The notes under the pieces were generated by a model that was given only the letters and a program-made list of their open reading frames with translations, did no database searches and was not told the DNA's origin. The translations under genes were made by a program, and so were the position numbers. A stretch of 32,143 nucleotides of DNA from Ionaspis alba (Eukaryota): assembly GCA_964255285.1 (NCBI GenBank), contig CAXUUL010000104.1, positions 1 to 32,143 on the forward strand. Reading direction: 5' to 3'. Of the stretch, positions 1 to 30,094 are shown piece after piece. Numbering within the stretch: position 1 is the first letter of the stretch; every line of letters begins with the position of its first letter.

Positions 1-675
1 AATAGTCCTCCGTGATCTTATCCGTGGGAACCATACTCAAGGAGGAAACGTTGAAGGGGGCAAACAAGGATACTGTACGAAGGACATAACGAATGGGCTC
101 GATACATAGAAAGGCAGTGACGTTGAAGATGGGACGATCGACTCAAGTGCTTGGTTTGGTGGCTTGAGAATCTGGCAGACTCGTGATCACGGTTCCATGG
201 CGACCAACGATGCAATGCGACCTCAACCTGTAAGCTCATGCTCTACGTGCTTGCGCTGAAGCAATTGTCAAAATGCATTCCTCTTTCTAGCTCATCACGC
301 CATTATCAAGACATCACCAAGTGTCTCAGCTTCCCCACACTCCCACTGCAATTCTGCTGTCATTGGGGCGTAACTGTCCCCGGCCGCATCCTTCAGCTCC
401 TGCGCGCCCGGGTGAAGAGCAAATGACTCGTCGAGCTTCATCTTTCTAGACCACCCTGTATCCACTCACAAGATCTCAAGCTGGCGGGGCTTCGTATTCC
501 TAAAGTCGCCCTTTTCTCCATTCTACTCTTTGCCGGCATTGCTATCATTCTGGCTCTGCCCCTCCGATTTTCCTCGAGGTTCACTACTCTGTTCAGCGCT
601 GTCCGTCCTATCGTGAATCTCAAGCCAGCATTCTCTTCCACTACATCTACAACTCGACCCCTTACGACCTCCACA

Positions 676-3032
676 ATGGCACCTTCAGCGTTCAAGAAGC
701 CGCCTCAGGCACCTCCTACATTTACTGGGACCGCCGAGTCTATTGTGGCAGACACAAAAAAGATAATTGAACAATCTCGAGCGCTTCAGGACAAAATAGT
801 GGCAAAGATCAAGCCGGAACAAGCTTCCTTCGACAACGTTATGCTTCCAATGGCTCATGCCGAAGACAAAGCTGCTCTGCAGACGCACGTTCTGGGCTTC
901 TATCAGGCGGTCTCGACGCATAAAGAGCTGCGGGATGCATCTACTGAAGCGGACAAGATGCTGAACGAGTTTAGTATCGAATCGGCCATGAGGGAAGATG
1001 TATATAGGCTTGTAGACGCTGCATTCGAGAAAAAGGAGCAACTCGATCCTGAATCTCAACGCCTTCTCGAGAAAGAGCGCAAGGAGTACATTCGGAATGG
1101 GTTAGGTCTACCAGTGGGTCCCAAAAGAGACAGATTCAAAGAGATCAAGCAAAGACTAGCCCAGATATCTATTGAGTTCCAGAAAAATCTCAATGAAGAG
1201 AAAGGAGGCATCTGGTTCACTCCCGAAGAGCTTGATGGTGTTCCGGAGGACACTGTCGCGACCTTGACTAAGGGGGATGGAGAGAATGCTGGAAAGCTGC
1301 GCCTGACTTTCAAATATCCCGACCTGTTCCCTACACTGAATTATGCCAAGAACGCTGCGACTAGAAAGAAGGTCTTCGTCAGTAACGAGAACAAATGCAA
1401 TCAGAATGTTCCACTTTTCAAGGAAGCTGTTGTACTCCGAGACGAAGCGGCAAGATTACTAGGATATCCCAACCATGCAGCTTTTCGTATTGAGGACAGG
1501 ATGGCCAAGACACCCGAAAATGTTGATGAATTCTTGGGAGACTTGAGGGAGCGCCTTGCGGAGGTTGGAGCGAAGGAGAGAAAGATATTAACGGAGATGA
1601 AGAAGGAAGATGTCGAGTCAAGAGGAGAGACCTTCGATGGCCATTATTTCATATGGGACAATCGTTTCTACGACCGTCTACAGGTCGAGAAAGACTACCA
1701 GGTCGACCAAGCGAAGATCTCGGAGTTCTTTCCTATCCAAACCACTCTTGCTGCAATGCTTCAGATCTTTGAAAAACTGCTTGGCTTGGCATTTGTTGAG
1801 GTCGTTGGTGATGATCGAGCGGCGATCTCTCCTTCCGGCAAAGGTGAGGATATTGTCTGGCATCCGGATGTGCAGATATTCAGTGTTTGGAATGATGAAA
1901 GCGAGGGCAGCGGCTTCGTCGGTTATCTCTATACTGATCTACATCCTAGAGAGGGAAAGTACGCTATTTTCGACACCTGTACACTCTTGTTGCAAGCTAA
2001 GATATTCTCTTCAGATACGGGCACGCAGCCAATTTCAATATGCAACCAGGGTTTATTTCTGAAAATGGAACGCGTAGATATCCTGCGACATCGCTAGTCT
2101 GTAACTTCAGCAAGCCAATGCCAAAGAAGCCGAGTCTTCTCAAGCACGACGAAGTCGTCACCCTTTTCCACGGTAAGACATTCTCTCCTCATCCGAGCGT
2201 TGCAGATACTGAATTTTCGCTCAGAACTCGGTCACGGAATCCACGACCTTGTTGGCAGATGCCGCTATTCCCGCTTCCACGGTACAAACACTGTCCAGGA
2301 CTTCGTCGAAGCCCCTTCCCAGATGCTCGAGAACTGGTGCTGGACCCCCGGACCTCTCAAAGCCTTGAGTCAGCACTATTCAAGTCTCTCCGATGAGTAC
2401 CTCGCCGCATGGAAGGAATCAGCCAAAGATGAGCCACAGCCTCCGGAGAAGATCCCGGACGAGCTCATTGATAATATTATCAAAAGCAAGCACGTCAATG
2501 ATGGCCTCTTCACTTTGCGACAACTTCACTTTGGAACATTTGATATGACAGTCCACGAACCAAAAACTCATGAGGACATCGAGAAGACCGACTGTTCTAT
2601 CCTATTCAATAAGCTTCGAAAAGACATCACCGCATTTGACGGCCCTGAGACCCTAGGAGACGGCCTAGATTGGGGTCACGGCGAGGCTACTTTTGGGCAT
2701 CTCGTTGGTAAGTTCAACCTTTTTCTCTCGCGCACTCAAGTCTTCCCAGCCTCTGATCCACTTTCGCTGATTGACACTGACACCATTGTACAGGCGGCTA
2801 CGACGCGGGCTACTACGGTTACCTCAATTCCCAAGTCTACTCCTTGGATATGTTCCACAGCGTGTTTGCCAAAAACCCCATGAATGGCAGTGAGGGACGG
2901 AGGTACCGACATGCTGTGCTAGAGAAGGGAGGGAGCCAGGATGAAATGAAGAGCCTGGTCGATTTCCTAGGAAGAAAGCCAAGCTCGGAAGCGTTTTATC
3001 GGGAATTGGGGTTAGAATCCCGGCAGACGTGA
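676..3032 (+). CDS. mepB: Peptidase family M3 metallo-oligopeptidase (thimet oligopeptidase/saccharolysin, MepB/Prd1-like), ~720 aa; exons 676-1958, 2015-2172, 2225-2707, 2794-3032
   Basis: Splicing at canonical GT-AG introns restores DLHPREGK|YGHAANF, the zinc motif TLFH|ELGHGIH (HEXXH split by intron 2173-2224), DFVEAPSQMLENWCW and HLV|GGYDAGYYGY. All are M3A hallmarks, and the exon sum (2163 nt) is in frame. Confidence 0.95.
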
Positions 3033-3357
3033 CGAGTTTATGCAGAGGAGGGGAAGCAAAATTCCTCGCTGTCACTGCTATCCAACCTACTACTTGCTAG
3101 AGCTTGGAAGAATTGACCGATTAGTTACATGGAAAAGAGGGCTATCATCTACAAGATATATATGTTCCCATTTAGCTCGAACAATATCTATAGTAGAAAC
3201 AGAAAATCCAACTAGCTCGTTGTCAGCGTAATGAGGACTCCCAACGCTGTGCTTCGACACTGTCAGTCGTCGTGATCCATGCCCCTAAGTCATCGTAACA
3301 GCATCGAATCTACAAATCATATAGCCCGTGCTAACGATCCTCCTTTCCTCAGAAGCC

Positions 3358-8570: not shown

Positions 8571-9037
8571 ACTGTTTTTGTAGATATTGTTCCTCCACTA
8601 TATCCTCAGCCCGATGAATCTTCTCGAGGATTATGTATATGGCGTTCTATCCATCCGACCGCAAACTCAGTGGTATGCAATTGGTACGGTTGCTGCTAAA
8701 TATCGATAGCTACTGACTCGATGCTCAGCTTATTCGATTCTCCCAGCCTGTCTCTCCCCAACCAATGGTCAAGTAACTTGACTCGCCAAGTATCATCAAA
8801 ATAGTAGCCGAATGGCGAGTGTTAGGGGTTTAAAACATTCAAGTATGCTCCGCACACCGGGGACCACCTAAGATTGCCCAGTTAGCTGGCGAGGAGCCTA
8901 ATTTGGCTGCAAGTCATGGTCCCGCGCTCCCAAACTGCACGCACTGCCGGAGTCGGCGAACGCTGATCTTTCCCCGCACAACTCGCTTCACGCCTGATCT
9001 GCAGAATTGCAGATCTCTGACTGCACCAACAACAATA

Positions 9038-10759
9038 ATGTTCGCAGTCCCAGGCTGGTCAATATCTGCAGATATACTTAAAACACAGACGGACGTTTCT
9101 GCGAAGAAGCCTGAGAAATGTCCCATTGCTGACTCGAATGGAACTTCCCCCACTATCAAAACCTCGAAGAAGCGAAAACGAGGTCCAGAAAAAGGCAATG
9201 CAACAGCAATTACGAGTGAAAATCTTGCCGAGCTATGGGAGAAGCATATTGAAGGCAGATCTGCAGTAAAGAAAAATGGCAAAGTCCATACCACGGAAGA
9301 TACACATGAGAAGAGGAAGGAGAAGCGCACAAAGGGAAAGGAGAAAGAGACCAAGCAATCTACGGGAGATGAAGTAGAACATGCTACTGGCGTAAAGCAT
9401 AAGGATAAATCTGCTGGCAAGGAAGACTTCCAGAAGCGGAAGCAACTCAAAGAGGAGAAACGGGCGAAGAAAGCTCGTCTGCAGGCCAATGGAGATCTCC
9501 CACCCTTGAGACCGAAGTCATCTACGACCCAAGAACCTCAGGTCTCCAAAGCGCCATCAAAGGAAGCTCCCAAAGCAATATCTGAACCTACTTCGAATAC
9601 GAGCAACCTCCTCTCTACGTCTTCCAATTCAACCAGAGGAACTCCATCTCTTCCGGCTCCCGCACCAGCCCCAACCTCAACCCTAACGCCCCTCCAAACC
9701 TCCATGCGCACAAAGCTTCTCTCCTCCCGTTTCCGCCACTTGAATCAAACCCTCTACACTACCCCTTCATCTGCCTCTCTCGCACTTTTCGCTCAAACAC
9801 CCTCTTTGTTCTCTGAGTATCACCAAGGATTCAGCCAACAGGTAGCGGCATGGCCCGAGAATCCGGTCGAAGGCTTCATACGCTGGATCCTGGAGCGTGG
9901 TTTTATTGGTCTAAAAGGCACTGGACTGGGGAGCCAGAAGGCGCAGTTCAGAACGAATAAGAAGGGCAAGGGAGGCGCCGATGTCGTGCCCGTAACAACC
10001 ACTCAGGTCTTGGTATCAACGAACTCAGTCCTCGAGCCTCTTCCTCGTGATCGGCGCGCCAACATCTGTACCATCGCAGATCTCGGGTGCGGCACCGCGC
10101 ATCTCGCGGCCACACTTACACCGTCCGTAAAGTCTCTCCAACTCAAACTACACTCCTTTGACCTCTCTGCTCCTTCTCCTCTCGTCACAGTCGCCGATAT
10201 CTCAGCTCTTCCGCTTCCGCCCGCCAGCGTGGACGTGGCCATTTTCTCACTCGCTCTCATGGGTACGAACTGGTTGGACTTCGTGGACGATTCGTGGCGG
10301 GTCCTGAAATGGAAGGGTGAGTGCTGGATTGCTGAGGTCGGGAGTCGGTTTGTTGGACAGAAGGAGTTGAAGAAGGGCGAAAAGGTGAGAGTTGGTCATA
10401 GTGTCGGGAACAGGACGAAGTTTGGGACTGGGAAGGCGAAAGGGGGCGACAAGAAGGGGCACGCAGCAGACAACGGTGAAGAGGAAGACCTTACTGTCGT
10501 TGAGGCGGAACCGTCGGTGAGATCTCCTGCGCAAACTACGGCGGATGTTTCCGCTTTTGTGGAGGTATTGCGGCTGAGGGGGTTTGTGTTAAAAGGGGAG
10601 CCTGAGCTGGGGAATAAGATGTTTGTGAGGCTGAGGTTTCTCAAGGGCTTGACGCCAGTCAAAGGAAGGAATGCGCCTGGAAAGGGAGGGGAGGTGGGAA
10701 ATGAGGATGTAGAAGTAGAGGGTAAGGTTTTGAAGGCTTGTGTTTATAAGACGAGGTGA
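9038..10759 (+). CDS. RRP8: 25S rRNA adenine-N1 methyltransferase Rrp8, 573 aa, intronless
   Basis: Typical filamentous-fungal start MFAVPGWS, a Lys-rich N-terminus, LTPLQTSMRTKLLSSRFRHLNQTLYT, YHQGFSQQVAAWPENPV, SAM motif IADLGCG, FSLALMGTNW and C-terminal LKACVYKTR. Confidence 0.94.
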   Translation: MFAVPGWSISADILKTQTDVSAKKPEKCPIADSNGTSPTIKTSKKRKRGPEKGNATAITSENLAELWEKHIEGRSAVKKNGKVHTTEDTHEKRKEKRTKGKEKETKQSTGDEVEHATGVKHKDKSAGKEDFQKRKQLKEEKRAKKARLQANGDLPPLRPKSSTTQEPQVSKAPSKEAPKAISEPTSNTSNLLSTSSNSTRGTPSLPAPAPAPTSTLTPLQTSMRTKLLSSRFRHLNQTLYTTPSSASLALFAQTPSLFSEYHQGFSQQVAAWPENPVEGFIRWILERGFIGLKGTGLGSQKAQFRTNKKGKGGADVVPVTTTQVLVSTNSVLEPLPRDRRANICTIADLGCGTAHLAATLTPSVKSLQLKLHSFDLSAPSPLVTVADISALPLPPASVDVAIFSLALMGTNWLDFVDDSWRVLKWKGECWIAEVGSRFVGQKELKKGEKVRVGHSVGNRTKFGTGKAKGGDKKGHAADNGEEEDLTVVEAEPSVRSPAQTTADVSAFVEVLRLRGFVLKGEPELGNKMFVRLRFLKGLTPVKGRNAPGKGGEVGNEDVEVEGKVLKACVYKTR

Positions 10760-13145: not shown

Positions 13146-15549
13146 ATGGCTGACTTCCGTCCAATCGCTCCGGCTCTACAGAGTGAGCATTCTTCTACCT
13201 CTTCCGCCAATCAAAGGGACCATCCTTCGGATACCCCTGGCACCTCGATCGGAGGCTTGTCCGGGCTGGGATCTGGAGTAGGGTCCGGAAGTGGCGGAGG
13301 TGATGGCGGGGGAGATGGCGGGAGACGCGGGCGTGGCCCTCCTGGCGACGCAGGCCAACGTCGCCGTCGATTGCCGGGCCATGTCGCAGTCCTAGCTTGT
13401 AATGAGTGCAGACGTGCCAGAGCCAAGGTACGTATGCCACTCCGCACTATTGCTACAGTGGCCATCGCTCGTGGCCTTACGACCCTTGTTTTTCCTTCGC
13501 CTTGACGATGCCAAATCGTCTCTACAAATCAGTTGACTAAATCACCGCGTTACAGTGCGATGGAGAAAGACCGGAAACATGTAGCAGATGCGCCGCTCGC
13601 GGCTTCAATTGTGTTTACGAGCCTCACACCAAGACCCACAAGGATGATCTTATCAAAGAAATGGAGAGTATTCGAGCGCAGCACGCTGGTCTGCAAGGCA
13701 CGTACTCAGGCTTGCAAGAGGACACCAAAAACCTTCAAAGAGTCAACGAAGATCAAGGCATCATCCTCGACATCCTCACCAACAACGGCCATGTGGAAGA
13801 AGTCATTCGGAGACTGCGATCTGGCGAATCTCGAGAATCTGTCGCCGATTGGCTGCACAGCCGTCCGGAACTCGAGAAATACATCCAAACCATCTCTGGA
13901 TCACGGCAAAACATCCTCAACGTTGTGTCTCGCGTCGAAGACCTCTACCACACCGCGAACAGACCCCCTGGAACTGATGAAACGCCTCATAGCTGGACCA
14001 AAGTCACGAACAGTCAAGTTCTCATCCGTCATCTTTTCGAATTGTACTTCACCTGGGTCCATCCAGTCCACATGCTCTTCGGGGAACTGGACTTCTTGCA
14101 CAGCTATGAGGCGGGAGATCCGACCTACTGTTCTCCTCCTTTGGTCAACGCCGTCTGTGCCATGGCTTGCCATCTTCTCGAAAATCCAATACCCGGTGTG
14201 ACGAACAGAGAGATCAGTGATAGGATGAAACTCCGGGAGGCTTTCATGGACGAAGCCCGGCAAAGACTTGAACTATCATCGCTGCTGCCAATGACATCCA
14301 TCCAAGCATTTGCTGTCATGTTTCTCGTCGATCTAAGCTCCGGCAAAGCTCGACGCGCCGCGGCCTACCTCAGATGCTCGGCAGATAATCTTAAATCAAC
14401 GAACTTTGGGAAAAGAACAGAGGAAGTCATGGAGTTGTCACAGTGGGGAATCCATACCTTGAATACGTTGGTTTTTCCTATTGTTATCCCATTCCCCTTA
14501 CATTTTTGATCGTTCTCCTAGTGCTTGGTCCGGTATCACATTTCAAAAACCTTTCAATCCGGTATCCCCTCGGAAAAATGTTTTCTTCAATGTCGAAATG
14601 CTCAAGGATTCGGTGCCGGCTCAGTGGCGATACTACCGACAACCTGGAGACGAAGCCAACATTCCAAAACGTCCCAGTTATGCGATCCTGACAGCTTGTC
14701 ATCAAGCCAAGCTCTACCGAATCGTTCACGATAGTATCAACATATACTGTGGTGCTCGTGGCAAGGTAACGGCCAAAGAAATTATCGGATGTTACCGGCG
14801 TTATCTCGACTGGGAGGAGAGACTACCCGACCAGGTCAGACGAACGGACGAAGATGCCCAACCATTGCCTCATGTTCTAGGTCTTCAGTAAGTTTTTACC
14901 GGTACTGCAACTCTCGGGTCTGTATTGACCAGGTCAAATCAGCATTCAATACCACACAGCACTGATCCAGCTCTTCATACCCTTGGCCGAATGCGACTAC
15001 TTCCCACCATCTGACACTGCAGAGATTCGAGCCTTGATAGCAGATCATGCTCGCCAAGGACTTGCTGTTCTGGAACAATCTCATCGACTCTATTCATGTC
15101 GGTACAACATGCCTCTCACCACTTTCTGCATCCTGCACCTCGGCGATGCAATCATCCGCTATTCGACTGAACCACCAAGAAAAGAAGTAATCGAATTCCT
15201 CATGATGACCATGAAAGCGAACCGTGCGGGCTTCTCCATTTGCGGACCACTGCAACAGATGTTTCGGCGGTCGCTCGAGGACGCGCACGTCAACCTGCCA
15301 GAAAATATGGATGCTTTGATGGAAACTGGCATCACATATTCCGTCGATGATGTCCTCGACGCTTGTACACGATTGTCGTATGGACAACCTACGGACCAAA
15401 TTATCCGTTGGATTGATAGCTCGATTGCGGAGGGGTGGGTCGAGGAATGGCAGGACCAGGTTGATGTGCCACTCGATCCAAAACGGCGATCGAGAACGCT
15501 GTCGACGGGTACCCGATCAATGGAAATCACATCGTTATTGAACGATTGA
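13146..15549 (+). CDS. Zn(II)2Cys6 transcription factor with fungal-specific TF (middle homology) domain, NirA-like class, ~721 aa; exons 13146-13427, 13556-14466, 14522-14887, 14943-15549
   Basis: Spliced binuclear cluster ACNECRRARAK|CDGERPETCSRCAARGFNCVY, then a coiled coil and WTKVT...HLFELYFTWVHPVHMLF...YCSPPLVNAVCAMAC. Three GT-AG introns give an in-frame 2166 nt. Confidence 0.92.
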
Positions 15550-21050: not shown

Positions 21051-22524
21051 ATGTCTCTATCCGATACTAGCGTCATGAACTTCACTGACCAAATCACAGG
21101 AGAATCTCTATAGCCACCCCGACTGCGAATGCCGAAGACATCTTGAATTTGGATGTTGGGAAGGACATGAACATCGGAGACCTAAAAGCCGTAATACAAG
21201 AAGACGTACATATACCAGCAAATCGCCAACTAGTCTATTACCATCAGACTCTCCTCGAAGACCCAGCCCAAACGCTTGAAGGTATTGGCATCAACGATCA
21301 AGATGTTCTACAGGTCCACGAAATCGTATCCGTCCCTCAGGGCCAAGCAGCCCGAGCTGTATCTTCGCAACAAGGCGGACAAGGCGGTGGAAGAACACGA
21401 GACGATGCAGAGACACTACGTCTCGCTGCGCTGAACGATCCGTCAATAATGGAACAGATGCGGCGTTTTCGGCCTGAGCTCGCACGAGTGATCCAAGACC
21501 AACAACATTTCCGCGAGGTATGGAATGAAGTGGTAAGGCGACAGAGTGAAGCGGAGACGGAAGTACAACGTAATATAGCACGTTTAAACAATGATCCTAC
21601 CAATGTGGAAACGCAGCGGAAAATCGAGGCGATGATCCAGGAGGAGGCTGTTGAGGAGAACTTACAGTATGCCCTAGAGTGGATGCCCGAAGGTGAGACT
21701 TCTGTTTCATCCTTGTGGATTGATTGAGAACATCTACTAAACACATCTCTGCAGTTTTCGCAAGAGTACACATGCTCTACATCCCCGTCGAAGTCAACAA
21801 TACCAAAGTCAAAGCCTTCGTCGACTCGGGAGCCCAGACGACCATCATGTCGCCTTCCTGCGCCGAACGCTGCGGTATCATGCGGCTCCTCGACAAGAGA
21901 TTCTCCGGCATTGCACGTGGAGTTGGAACGGCCAGCATTCTCGGCAGAGTCCACAAAGCTCAGATCAAGATCGGGACAAGATTCCATCTGTGCAGCTTTA
22001 CCGTCATGGAAGGGAAGGACGTTGATCTGCTTCTGGGACTAGACATGCTTAAGAGACACCAGGCATGCATCGACCTGCGGAAGGGTGCATTGATCATTAG
22101 CGACGAAGAGGTGCCATTCCTGGCAGAGGCTGATATCCCGAAGAATGAGGAAGCGTTCGCGGATGAGCCAACCGTCGAAGGACCAGGAGGGCTACAGATC
22201 GGTGGGAGAAGCGGTACGGTCTTGCCTCCTTCCACAGAGCAGCCCGCTCCTGGTACCGGTAATTTCCAAGGCAAGGGCCAGACAGTGGGTTCGTCGGCGC
22301 AAGCACAACAGCCACCACAGCAGCAGCCGCAGCCTTCGGTGCGACAGCAGACGCCTTTGCGAGCTCCACAGCAGAGACCACAAGGCACTGCGTCGTTCCC
22401 GCCAGCAGCTATTGCCCAGTTGATGGATTTGGGATTTTCGAGGGAACAAGTTTTGCAGGCGTTGCTGAGGGCTGAGGGCAACGTTGAATTTGCAGCAGGG
22501 TTCCTATGGGAAAGGCTTGGCTAG
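21051..22524 (+). CDS. DDI1: DNA damage-inducible protein Ddi1 (UBL - helical - retroviral-type aspartyl protease - UBA), ~454 aa; exons (21051-21052), 21100-21692, 21755-22524
   Basis: UBL-like N-terminus, PE|VFARVHMLYIPVEVN..VKAFVDSGAQTTIMSPSCAERCGIMRLLDKRFSGIARGVG, DLLLGLDMLKRHQACIDL and C-terminal UBA LMDLGFSREQVLQAL..AEGNVEFAA. The exact 5' end is inferred. Confidence 0.95.
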
Positions 22525-26460: not shown

Positions 26461-29400
26461 ATGACTGACGACCTTTACGCACGCGAGCAAGGCTTTACCT
26501 CACCGACAATGGAAGAGGAGGAGGACAACAACAACAACACAGTCAGCAACAATGCACACCCTATACCTGCAGGATCGGAAGAGGGGATCGCAGGTTTGGG
26601 ACAAGATCCAGCAACAAGCACATCGACAACGAATCCTGATACGACCAAGGTACAAAATGGACTGAAGGCTCGAAAGAGAACCAAGACTGGCTGTCTCAGT
26701 ACGCCTCATAGTTATTGTCTCGTTGCCGACGGATAATGCTAACATTCAGATAGCGTGTCGAAAACGGCGGATAAAGTGTGGAGAGGAGAGGCCAACTTGC
26801 GCCAATTGCATCAAGTCCAAGAGAAGCTGTGAAGGTTACGCTCCTCGCCTGACATTCAAAGATCCTATCGGAGCTTATCGATCTGGATGGGCTGCGAAAG
26901 GGAATGACACTCAATATCAGAATCTGCCTCATCACAATGGTATCGCAGGACAATACAGGCTACCAAATCCTGGGACTGGAGCACAGAATCAATTACCTGC
27001 CATAGCGCCTCGGCCCTTACCTCCAGGGTCACGCAATGGCATGTTTCATTCTCTGGACGGAGCTACTTCCACCTGGCCAGGAGCACCATACAGTTCGACC
27101 CAGAGAGATGCTCCAATCGCAAATATATCCTCAAGCGATTTGCCTCCAAGGATGCGCGCGGCATATAGGCAGCAGGATAATTCGTCCTACGGTACTCCTG
27201 CCCTTGCTCAAAGAGCTCTCCCTCCAAATGGGCAGCACACCCAGCCGTATCTCTCGAGCTTGCAAGATCAGGTGTCAGCATCACTCGAGCCCAACAGACG
27301 GTACAGTCTTGCAGAAGCTACGCAGGCACGACCACAGGTTTCTACGAGCGATGCAGCACCCGCCGAATACATCCAAGCTCAAGCAGAATATACACCTACG
27401 TCCAGTGTTTCCGGATCTAGTATGCCTCAACTCAACACCGACCAAGAGCTTGTCCCGGGCAATCTTGGGCAACAAATACCTCTCGAGTTCGCTGAAATTC
27501 CGAGTCCTCCACAGCTCCTCCACTCAGGCCAACTCTATACCCCTGCCACCACGGACTCCACTAATCTGGAAAACTACAATTGGACCCCACAACAAGAACT
27601 CTCGCCAACCGTCCATACAAGCTCAGGTACGTATCACCGATCTTTCCTCAGTATATCCATAGATCAGGGTTTCAAGCATGTGGAGCAACACTTTTTCTGA
27701 CTACTCGTTCCTTGTAGGTTATGTTGGCCAGATCACCTCCACCTCAGGCTTCACACCTCCGAGCACGATATTGGAAGACAATCTTGGATATCCAAAACCA
27801 TGGCCAAGGATTTCTCAGCGGCAACTACCTCCTCCACCAGATGATGGAGATGACGACTATTATGACGTAGAGTCCGACGAGGACGCAGTGCCAAATCCTC
27901 CTTACATAGCGACCACTCCACAAAACGATCTTGGTCTACTTCTGGCGCTATCCGCAAGTCAGGATGATCGCGCCATTCGTTCCTACACGGCCTTCTTGCA
28001 TCATTCGAATATTCTTTCGACATATCAACCAACATTCACAGCGTCTCCTTTGATGGATGCCACGACCGCGAGAATCTTTTGTCACTTCATCACAGCCACA
28101 GGTCCCAGTCTTTCAATTTTCGAGCGGCATCCAATGAACCCATCTGTTATGTTTACCGGTAGACCCGTACCCAAGTCGCAGCAGGCATTATGGACCTATA
28201 CTTTACCTATGTTGGCGTTATCCAATCAAGGTCTTCTTCACGCTATGCTTGCTCTCGCAAGTTTGCACATCTCCAAGCTCCAATCCACACCTCCCACTTC
28301 CTCTTTAAAGCATTACCACTTTGCCCTGAGACGGGTCAGCAAAGCCGTCGCAACACCTTCGAAGCGTACCGATATTGCTACTATCGCTGCAACTTTGGTG
28401 CTAGGGCATTATGAGGCCAGTACGGCTGAGCATAGCAAGTGGAACAGTCATCTTGCTGGCGCTAGACAGCTTCTTATGGAGATCGACTTCAAGGGCATGA
28501 CCAAACATATCAAGGACGAAAAGGCGAGGAGGGAGGCACGCTACGGCTCCTGGCAAGATCCTTACAACAGCTTGACACAAAAAGGTCAACTCCCGGAACT
28601 GTACACTTCCAAGGAGGATGAGATCGATGAAACCATTGTCAGTTCGATCATGGGCTGGAAAGTTCGCTATGATGAATTTGGACGTGTCGTCGAAGATGAG
28701 CAGGGCGATCCAATGAATGTTTCTATTACCGAAAAGGATATTGAAAACCATCACGTCTATACCGATCTGTTCTGGTTCTATTGTAAGCTGGACGTCTATC
28801 AATGCCTAATCAGTGGCAACAGATTACTGTAAGTGCTCAATGCTTCTGCACATGTCTTTCAGCTAACATGCTGATTAGAATGCCGTATGATCGTTGGGGT
28901 CACTGTCCTCCACGTGGACCCATCAGCAGGCTAGACGCCATCTATGGAACTCTTGATCATCTTGTTCTCTTGATGGGCAGAATTTCGGACTTCGCGGCGA
29001 AAGATTCTGCGAGGAAACGCAAAGCCGTGGAAGCCAACGGCGGTCAATGGCGGCCTCCGCCTGGTATGTTTCCAAGCCCACCTCCTGGCACTTCCAGAGG
29101 ACCTCCTGGTGGGATGCCACCAGGTATGCCACCAGGTCCGCCAGGAGGGATGCCATCAGGGATGGCAGGATCTACGCCACCTTTTGGACAAGGTCCACCA
29201 CCAGGAGCTCCAAACGGGAGTCCACAGACATCTACCCCTCAGCAGCCTCCCGTATACGGAATGATGCCCCCCCAGCCCCAAAGGGAAATGCCGAACGCCT
29301 TCACGCAAGCTCCAAGAGACAAGATCTTCATTCCCACCACCCCAGAAGAAGACCAAGACCTCGCCGCCGCCACCGCCGCCGCCGAAAAAGAATGGCACGA

Positions 29401-30094
29401 CATCGTGGCCGCCCTCGACCTCTTCGAAGCCTGTCTCGGCCCAGGCTGGGCTCCGCTCTCCACAGACCATACTCCTCCCATCGCCACCCCCTTCGGCCCC
29501 GCAATCCAATACCGCACCTACTCCATCTCCTGTATCTGGGTCCTCTTCTACGTCGGCCGCATCGTCAGCAAACGCATGCACCCCTCCATGCCTCCCGCAG
29601 CCATGACTGCCGCTGCTGTCGCCGCTGCTCAGACAGCCGAGTGGGCCAACACCCTCGGTCGCATCGCCTGCGGTCTTTACCTCCCTCCTCCAAATCAACC
29701 CCTCAATCCCAATCTCGGCGCCGCTCTCATGGAATCCACCCTCGGCCTCTTCTTCGGCGGCATCCAATACACAGACCCTATACAGCGCTCCCAAACAGTC
29801 ACTCGTCTCCGTGCCATCGCTGACATGAGTGGATTTCAATCAGCGGCACTCATCGCTGCTGGTTGCGAAACTTGCTGGATCAAGATGGCGCAGGCGGGCA
29901 GGGGTCCGCCGTATGAACGCACGCATAATCCTAGGGCTACGGATTATAGGGAGGCGGGCAAGAGGCCTCCGAAGGGCGATGAGCATGATCGTACGATGGT
30001 TGCTGTTAATCCGGGGACGAGAGTGCATTGGGCAATGGGGATTATGAGCTTGGATGAGGATTTTAGGGATATGAGGTTGGTGAGAAAGGGGTAG
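26461..30094 (+). CDS. Large Zn(II)2Cys6 transcription factor with Fungal_trans_2-type C-terminal domain, ~1145 aa; exons 26461-26698, 26754-27626, 27718-28828, 28879-30094
   Basis: Spliced RKRTKTGCL|TCRKRRIKCGEERPTCANCIKSKRSCEGY, then IFCHFITATGPSLSIFERH, LLHAMLALASLH, HYHFALRR and WNSHLAGARQLL. Three GT-AG introns give an in-frame 3438 nt. The start could instead be ATG 26509. Confidence 0.92.

Follow-up and report, generated by a model that had tools for sequence, protein, structure and literature searches.

Introduction

The yeast oligopeptidase Prd1 (saccharolysin) is described as a soluble enzyme of the mitochondrial matrix that degrades presequence peptides (PMC5561175), and its older placement in the intermembrane space is still repeated in reviews. 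MepB of Aspergillus fumigatus, called an 82-kDa intracellular enzyme in the title of a cited paper, hydrolyses collagen and is dispensable for virulence in mice (PMC3105077), and the M3A enzymes of A. niger are annotated as cytosolic (PMC7804941). Here we analyzed a gene of this type in a 32,143-nt stretch of DNA from Ionaspis alba (contig CAXUUL010000104.1, forward strand; the whole stretch is called the window below). Its reading frame stays open upstream of the main AUG and contains two deeply conserved near-cognate start codons, which, together with that AUG, appear to give three forms of the peptidase across at least five classes of Pezizomycotina. The initial annotation of this DNA had followed the intermembrane-space view of Prd1, since replaced by the reassignment to the matrix (PMC5561175).

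The window peptidase resembles Prd1 and MepB in its PF01432 domain and in a HELGH motif with a Glu 29 residues further on. Yeast Prd1 presumably has an AUG-started presequence followed by a second Met, unlike the window gene. Mammalian neurolysin (EP24.16), an M3A relative with solved structures, makes its forms through alternative promoters and AUG starts and is not known to use CUG for them. Neurolysin is tabled with Prd1 as its yeast orthologue and carries the alias 'microsomal endopeptidase' (PMC7290828).

Several fungal systems offer parallels for the starts themselves. Neurospora crassa cpc-1 initiates at conserved near-cognate codons that have A at −3 and G at +4 (PMC5487733), a non-AUG start adds a type 2 peroxisomal targeting signal (PTS2) to Ustilago Pgd1 (PMC7214817), and non-AUG starts give cryptic targeting of yeast Ala1, Grs1, Hfa1 and Hyr1 (PMC6582344). 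Dual targeting in Cryptococcus and Neurospora has been described for genes with two AUGs, where a signal peptide before the alternative start was not enriched (PMC7049704). Like the M3A gene, cpc-1 has a Pezizomycotina-wide open frame before the main AUG, and several near-cognate codons in it are conserved and stand in good context, but its extension bypasses an inhibitory upstream open reading frame (uORF) of a transcription factor, whereas each M3A start would uncover a different targeting signal. As in Pgd1 and the four yeast genes, a near-cognate start would put an organellar signal on a cytosolic enzyme; those genes, however, have one signal and two forms, whereas the M3A gene has two starts 22–28 codons apart, nested signals and three predicted forms. 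The M3A extension is also similar to the Cryptococcus and Neurospora cases, but two conserved weak starts would expose the nested signals. Non-AUG targeting extensions are already known in fungi, with one signal each in the cited cases, and two nested signals differ from these. A full-text search of the literature, limited to main texts, found no description of non-AUG starts for MepB or Prd1, nor did we find a near-cognate start or a membrane anchor described for either protein. PRD1 is absent from the main text of PMC6582344 and bioRxiv 2022.03.25.485750, whose supplementary gene lists could name it, and the word 'peptidase' is absent from PMC7049704, supplementary lists aside.

Results

An open frame precedes the main AUG of an M3A peptidase gene

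By domain and zinc motif the gene product is an M3A oligopeptidase: PF01432 (Peptidase_M3) scored above cut-off on all four exons, the HELGH zinc motif lies at residue 480 and the downstream Glu ligand at 509 of the 720 aa counted from ATG676, close database matches are named MepB, saccharolysin or 'Prd1 homolog', and solved neurolysin structures matched with an E-value of 1.8e-65. The initial annotation had described a frame open from a TGA to ATG676 with no in-frame ATG, and within it a 65-residue extension from CTG481 with a hydrophobic helix and no Asp or Glu, all of which was seen again in the window. The frame is open at 427–675 and is bounded by the TGA at 424–426 (+ strand, as are all features of the gene), 18 codons 5′ of the CTG at 481–483. 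This codon, referred to as site 1, has the context ctcaag-CTG-gcg, with A at −3 and GC at +4/+5. The 65 codons from there to ATG676 encode no Asp or Glu, and a hydrophobic run occupies extension residues 9–26 (best 17-residue Kyte-Doolittle mean 2.88). A second CTG at 550–552, referred to as site 2, also has A at −3 and GC at +4/+5. The extension sequence is not an assembly slip, because a single read-derived contig covered window positions 305–694 at a depth of 128 with no alternative letters; the sequencing run that gave this contig may be the window's own source, and its contigs were DNA-like, without splice joints.

For comparison, a metagenome scan gave 33 loci, of which 23 were retained and joined with the window into a set of 24 distinct Pezizomycotina loci, to which the counts below refer unless stated otherwise. 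Four duplicates (L003, L006, L012, L016), four loci with little or no DNA 5′ of the ATG (L005, L013, L017, L028), and L025 and L033 were left out. Median core identity in the set was 67%, with 15 clusters at 80% core identity. A FastTree phylogeny of exon-1 proteins grouped the window with Trapelia, Xylographa and Lambiella (support 0.96), which are lichen-forming Lecanoromycetes; deep branches were not resolved. Named tree neighbours of the loci belonged to Lecanoromycetes, Geoglossomycetes, Eurotiomycetes, Dothideomycetes and Sordariomycetes, and one clade of seven loci had no named member. Some loci seemed to lack introns and were considered as possible transcripts that might mark a transcription start, but none qualified: insertions of intron size persist in L022 and L027, L026 and L034 belong to long genomic contigs, and the 5′ end is missing from L017.

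The extension shows coding-type constraint

The frame from site 1 to the ATG contained no stop in 1505 codons, compared with 44 and 23 stops in the two remaining frames. Where site 1 was not CTG (five loci), the extension was taken to begin 23 codons before site 2. Over the 60 codons before site 1, stops numbered 42, 43 and 44 by frame, the 42 being in the extension frame, and 21 of the 24 loci had an in-frame stop within this distance. The ratio of nonsynonymous to synonymous substitution (dN/dS) was 0.16–0.58 for the extension in 12 pairs and 0.04–0.06 for the core in close pairs, and the segment from site 2 to the ATG gave 0.21–0.44 in 10 of the 12 pairs and was undefined in the other two. 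Indels in the extension were multiples of 3 in the six closest pairs, unlike upstream indels. Asp and Glu together made up 2 of 1505 residues in the extension; the corresponding figures were 153 of 1440 for the core and 45 of 952 for the upstream sequence. In the helix, T occupied codon position 2 in 252 and C position 3 in 276 of 384 codons (chi-square 361, 6 degrees of freedom), and frame 0 was the most hydrophobic of the three frames at every locus; this strong codon-position bias and the hydrophobicity of frame 0 argue that the helix is no by-product of a CT tract.

Comparing the upstream regions of orthologues, as proposed in the initial annotation, thus returned an open frame, low dN/dS and conserved CUG/GUG codons, and the translated targeting extension postulated there was upheld by the stop counts, the dN/dS range and the frame-0 hydrophobicity. 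By these comparative measures the extension is real and conserved, and it is very probably translated from near-cognate starts.

Some nucleotide-level constraint is also evident, since synonymous divergence was lower in the extension than in the core in close pairs (0.20 versus 0.54 and 0.43 versus 0.64), as it would be if the region were an untranslated, CT-rich promoter or leader element with two CTGGC protein-binding sites and its peptide features were by-products. Read on the opposite strand, CTGGC corresponds to part of the PacC recognition sequence GCCARG. Against such an element stand the strong 3-nt periodicity in the helix, with frame 0 the most hydrophobic throughout, and the fact that the motifs hold frame while their spacing varies. 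In addition, the −1 base required by PacC is not conserved at site 1 (G5, C5, A4, T5), and no conserved hairpin was found downstream of the starts (mean z −0.27 and −0.05; z < −2 in 2 of 19 and 1 of 24 loci, respectively). The PacC-type and CT-box readings were rejected on the codon and frame evidence, and of all the alternatives an untranslated element is the least probable.

Two near-cognate codons are conserved in frame

Site 1 was CTG in 19 of the 24 loci, where it was always followed by GCG or GCT and had A at −3 in 17 of the 19, with −2 and −1 free; CUG481, put forward initially as a near-cognate start, is in this respect a conserved one. Site 2, located at the end of the hydrophobic helix, 22–28 codons after site 1, was more strongly conserved: it was CTG in 19 loci and GTG in 5, thus one or the other in all 24, with A (22) or G (2) at −3, G at +4 in 23 and C at +5 in 24. 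GTG at this position occurred in two separate clades. The main ATG had the same context, with a purine at −3 and C at +5 in 24 of 24. A frame-blind scan of the 300 nt 5′ of the ATG placed 42 of 43 [C/G]TGGC matches in frame, at sites 1 and 2; the counts per frame were 28/22/25 for the core and 17/8/17 for DNA further upstream. No further in-frame CTG or GTG in strong context was found between the two sites.

With Leu/Val-Ala, the helix ends in what looks like a signal-peptidase site, and one long precursor carrying a bipartite signal would be the simpler arrangement, so CUG481 might be the only start and codon 550 an ordinary Leu of the helix or cleavage site. Codon usage speaks against this. 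Leu at site 2 was encoded by CTG in 19 of 19 cases versus 8 of 124 in the helix and 28.6% (276/965) in the core, Val at site 2 by GTG in 5 of 5 versus 22 of 95 in the extension, and the −3 base was a purine in all 24 loci; in 28 conserved core Leu columns taken as a control, the commonest codon reached at most 57%. Because protein constraint cannot fix a codon, an ordinary residue does not explain the bias at site 2. In addition, a Pro stood right after the conserved Ala at the helix end, the one cut site scored, in 13 of the 24 loci, and Pro at +1 blocks signal peptidase. A single start at CUG481 is quite improbable on this evidence, and we are confident, though short of certain, that both near-cognate sites are used. 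The initial annotation had inferred two isoforms: those from CUG481 and AUG676 are supported, the latter as the cytosolic form, but the second conserved start at 550 had been overlooked, and three forms are likely.

The splicing alternative offered in the initial annotation, in which an exon from ATG238 would be joined to the extension across an intron at 370–480 with no need for a non-AUG start, fared poorly. The join is in frame, the exon would measure 132 nt, and some models in the databases begin at a Met further upstream. However, AG preceded site 1 in only 3 of the 19 CTG loci, the proposed intron ends in AAG and has a non-consensus branch whereas the three real introns end in CAG, and a minor allele carries a 1-nt insertion behind position 304, in the proposed exon (one contig, depth 32/114). 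The parts of the extended database models upstream of site 1 also looked unrelated to each other on inspection, as expected if annotators took any upstream Met, and splicing would leave the two invariant CTG/GTG codons unexplained; we consider it very unlikely. Joining ATG423 to the frame through a short intron was likewise rejected on inspection by eye, as the donor is weak and the ATG position is not common to most loci.

Over its 4515 nt at the 24 loci, the extension contained no ATG in any frame, compared with 44 in 4220 nt upstream, and 2000 codon shuffles of it gave a mean of 7.5 ATGs and a minimum of 1. Both codons could be real starts with the forms chosen mainly by alternative transcription starts instead of leaky scanning: the helix-coding stretch is 73% pyrimidine (921/1254 nt), and CT-rich tracts of this kind presumably occur near fungal transcription starts. 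Cryptococcus genes are described as combining both controls (PMC7049704). Nevertheless, a separate mRNA for each form would let AUG serve as its start, and weak CUG/GUG codons that are kept, with ATG excluded from 4515 nt, are what leaky scanning requires. We regard control mainly by transcription starts as improbable, though less so than the other alternatives.

Targeting signals predicted for the two longer forms

The segment between site 2 and the Met has the character of a mitochondrial presequence. It comprises 29–60 residues with a net charge of +2 to +6, is rich in Ser, Thr, Pro, Leu and Arg, and contains Asp or Glu at only 2 of the 24 loci, one residue each; its best 18-residue hydrophobic moment was 4.0–10.5, a range taken without a control set. 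In the window it spans 553–675, is similarly Ser/Thr/Pro/Leu/Arg-rich with a net charge of +5 and no Asp or Glu, and would make the product of CTG550 a 762-aa mitochondrial precursor. The Arg of column R59 was invariant in 23 aligned sequences and was followed by x-[L/I/V]-T-T-S; this Arg lay 7 codons before the Met at 21 of the 24 loci and occupies 655–657 in the window. The motif R-x-[L/I/V]-T-T-S resembles an R-2/R-3 cleavage site of the mitochondrial processing peptidase (MPP). We consider it likely from these features that site 2 gives a matrix form, in keeping with the present matrix assignment of yeast Prd1.

The site 1 form, 785 aa in the window, begins with a basic n-region followed by the hydrophobic helix (484–558, helix codons 505–558), whose best 17-residue Kyte-Doolittle mean was 1.93–3.05 among the loci. 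It is predicted to be membrane-anchored, and the Pro after the conserved Ala argues for an uncleaved signal anchor. The flank on the N side of the helix was more positive at 16 loci, equal at 7 and less positive at 1, the excess being mostly one charge with the N-terminal amine included. The destination of this form is the least certain step: a membrane of the endoplasmic reticulum (ER) or secretory pathway is a tentative first choice at slightly under even odds, a mitochondrial membrane a possibility only a little weaker, and any other fate unlikely. The ER is favoured by the high hydrophobicity, by the slight N-side charge excess and by paralogues whose Met-started N-termini are hydrophobic. 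A presequence-like segment behind a helix is also reminiscent of an outer-membrane anchor or of inner-membrane targeting of the Bcs1 type.

The database proteins included fungal M3A paralogues (P0238, P0244, P0280, P0320, P0330, P0337, P0339, P0356 and P0370) in which a signal peptide or anchor begins at a Met and N-glycosylation sequons are in excess, and the observed/expected sequon ratio was 1.71 in 15 proteins with a hydrophobic N-terminus; judged by sequence, this paralogue group is probably secreted or membrane-bound. The Penicillium roqueforti P0356 cluster, Dactylellina P0280 and Ophiocordyceps P0330 share a hydrophobic N-terminus with the site 1 form but differ in being separate Met-started genes, mostly without a presequence and internal Met, and in their sequon enrichment. 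They show that hydrophobic N-termini do occur on fungal M3A enzymes.

A three-start model and the evidence against it

We propose that, in Pezizomycotina, leaky scanning gives access to three in-frame starts of the MepB/Prd1-type M3A gene. A few ribosomes would start at CUG481 and produce the form with the basic N-terminus and uncleaved hydrophobic anchor, some would initiate at CUG550, which is GUG in two other clades, and produce a precursor with a classical matrix presequence, and most would reach AUG676 and produce the cytosolic enzyme. The precursor would probably be cut by MPP just past the conserved Arg, so that the mature matrix enzyme would be nearly the same as the cytosolic one. We give this model of anchored, matrix and cytosolic forms, with the destination of the longest left open, a probability of about 0.7. 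The whole case is comparative: the open frame, the coding-type constraint, the way both sites are conserved at codon level together with their context, and the lack of any AUG or competing strong in-frame CUG/GUG between them are read directly from the loci, and from these we infer initiation at both sites, the presence of all starts on one mRNA and each location. There is an even chance that this ladder of starts divides one peptidase among a membrane (ER/secretory or mitochondrial), the matrix and the cytosol across filamentous ascomycetes. As the second start codon is also the last residue of the anchor helix, the split would follow start-codon stringency (eIF1/eIF5, stress).

Several observations weigh against the three-start model. 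Site 1 was not CTG at 5 of the 24 loci, although the helix was still present in all five: three Penicillium-like loci (L009, L015, L018) had ATT or ATA with A at −3, 16–17 codons before site 2, and two (L002, L022) had an in-frame ATG further upstream instead. L033, outside the set, lacks the two-site arrangement, and an in-frame ATG opens a short basic leader there. Stops or frameshifts in relatives had been named at the outset as evidence that would count against translation; apart from the absence of stops reported above, one locus outside the set, L025 (2806–3006), keeps both CTG sites but has them out of frame with the ATG by one base, in an ATC repeat that precedes it; either the assembly is wrong there or the long forms have truly been lost. 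The loci are related to one another, as their clustering indicates; the motif was first noticed in the same loci in which it was later counted, so that the frame-blind scan is not independent; and the dN/dS values come from protein-guided alignments, which lower dN. For MepB and its homologues in A. niger, the published location is intracellular or cytosolic (PMC7804941 and the cited title). Finally, sequon observed/expected ratios of 0.84 in 45 full-length homologues and 0.31 in the first 400 aa at the 24 loci do not favour a lumenal long form, a weak test given that the sequences are related.

In the clade of the three Penicillium-like loci, site 1 has seemingly changed from CUG to AUU or AUA and site 2 to GUG.

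If the model is true, MepB has an overlooked membrane-bound or extracellular form, a membrane-anchored MepB being what the model predicts, and leaders in which anchor and presequence are nested could turn out to be a general design in filamentous ascomycetes that annotation has missed. The three starts would also explain how filamentous fungi could obtain Prd1 activity in the matrix from a gene that is usually modelled without a presequence. The CTG/GTG-GC signature with A at −3 can be scanned for genome-wide.

Gene models and protein records

Protein records were largely independent of the 24 loci, with few overlaps. Only 81 of 223 scored database proteins carried any extension, and most records start at the internal Met, so that standard annotation misses the longer form, as had been anticipated initially. 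Among the 61 proteins with an extension of at least 55 aa, 35 had [L/V]-A at site 1; the residue before it was K, T, I or N in 31 of the 35, and since the codons of these four all begin with A, A is at −3 in 31 of 35. P0037 and P0168 begin with Met exactly at site 2, and P0002 and P0197 at site 1 (proteins only). Current gene models are, by this reading, either truncated or extended to arbitrary upstream Met residues. One record with the extension, P0018, is annotated as coming from the tree Carpinus fangiana and groups with Dothideomycete M3A proteins; it is probably fungal contamination of the C. fangiana assembly.

Gene structure and other features of the window

Exon 1 continues from ATG676 to 1958, followed by intron 1 (1959–2014), exon 2 (2015–2172), intron 2 (2173–2224), which interrupts the HELGH zinc motif, exon 3 (2225–2707), which carries the third zinc ligand Glu509, intron 3 (2708–2793) and exon 4 (2794–3032, through the stop codon); all three introns have the form GT...CAG. 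A second M3 gene was not found in the assembly, and neither was the expected Oct1/MIP gene; because the latter was likewise missed, the single M3 copy is weak evidence.

An out-of-frame uORF of 8 codons in weak context (C at −3, A at +4) lies at 423–449 (+) and may be upstream of the transcription start. A short out-of-frame uORF ending 7–34 nt 5′ of site 1 was also present in L008, L029, L021, L024, L007, L010 and L014; its length at L008 and L029 is 8 codons, as in the window. Such a uORF could adjust how often ribosomes re-initiate at the CUG, but the density of upstream ATGs is at the background level.

The sequencing run contained a second allele at about one quarter of the depth, with 24 substitutions and one 1-nt insertion, in stretches corresponding to window positions 198–334, 665–786, 2714–2769 and 3037–3092. 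The sample is accordingly of mixed genotypes.

Elsewhere in the window, a frame at 28787–30094 (435 aa) had no Pfam match. Neighbouring genes identified by Pfam encode a cytochrome P450 (3770–4963, −), a Methyltransf_8 (RRP8-like) protein (8834–10759, +), two Zn2Cys6 transcription factors (13541–14509 and 26666–28832, both +) and a DDI1-like protein with ubiquitin-like, aspartyl protease and UBA domains (21089–22524, +).

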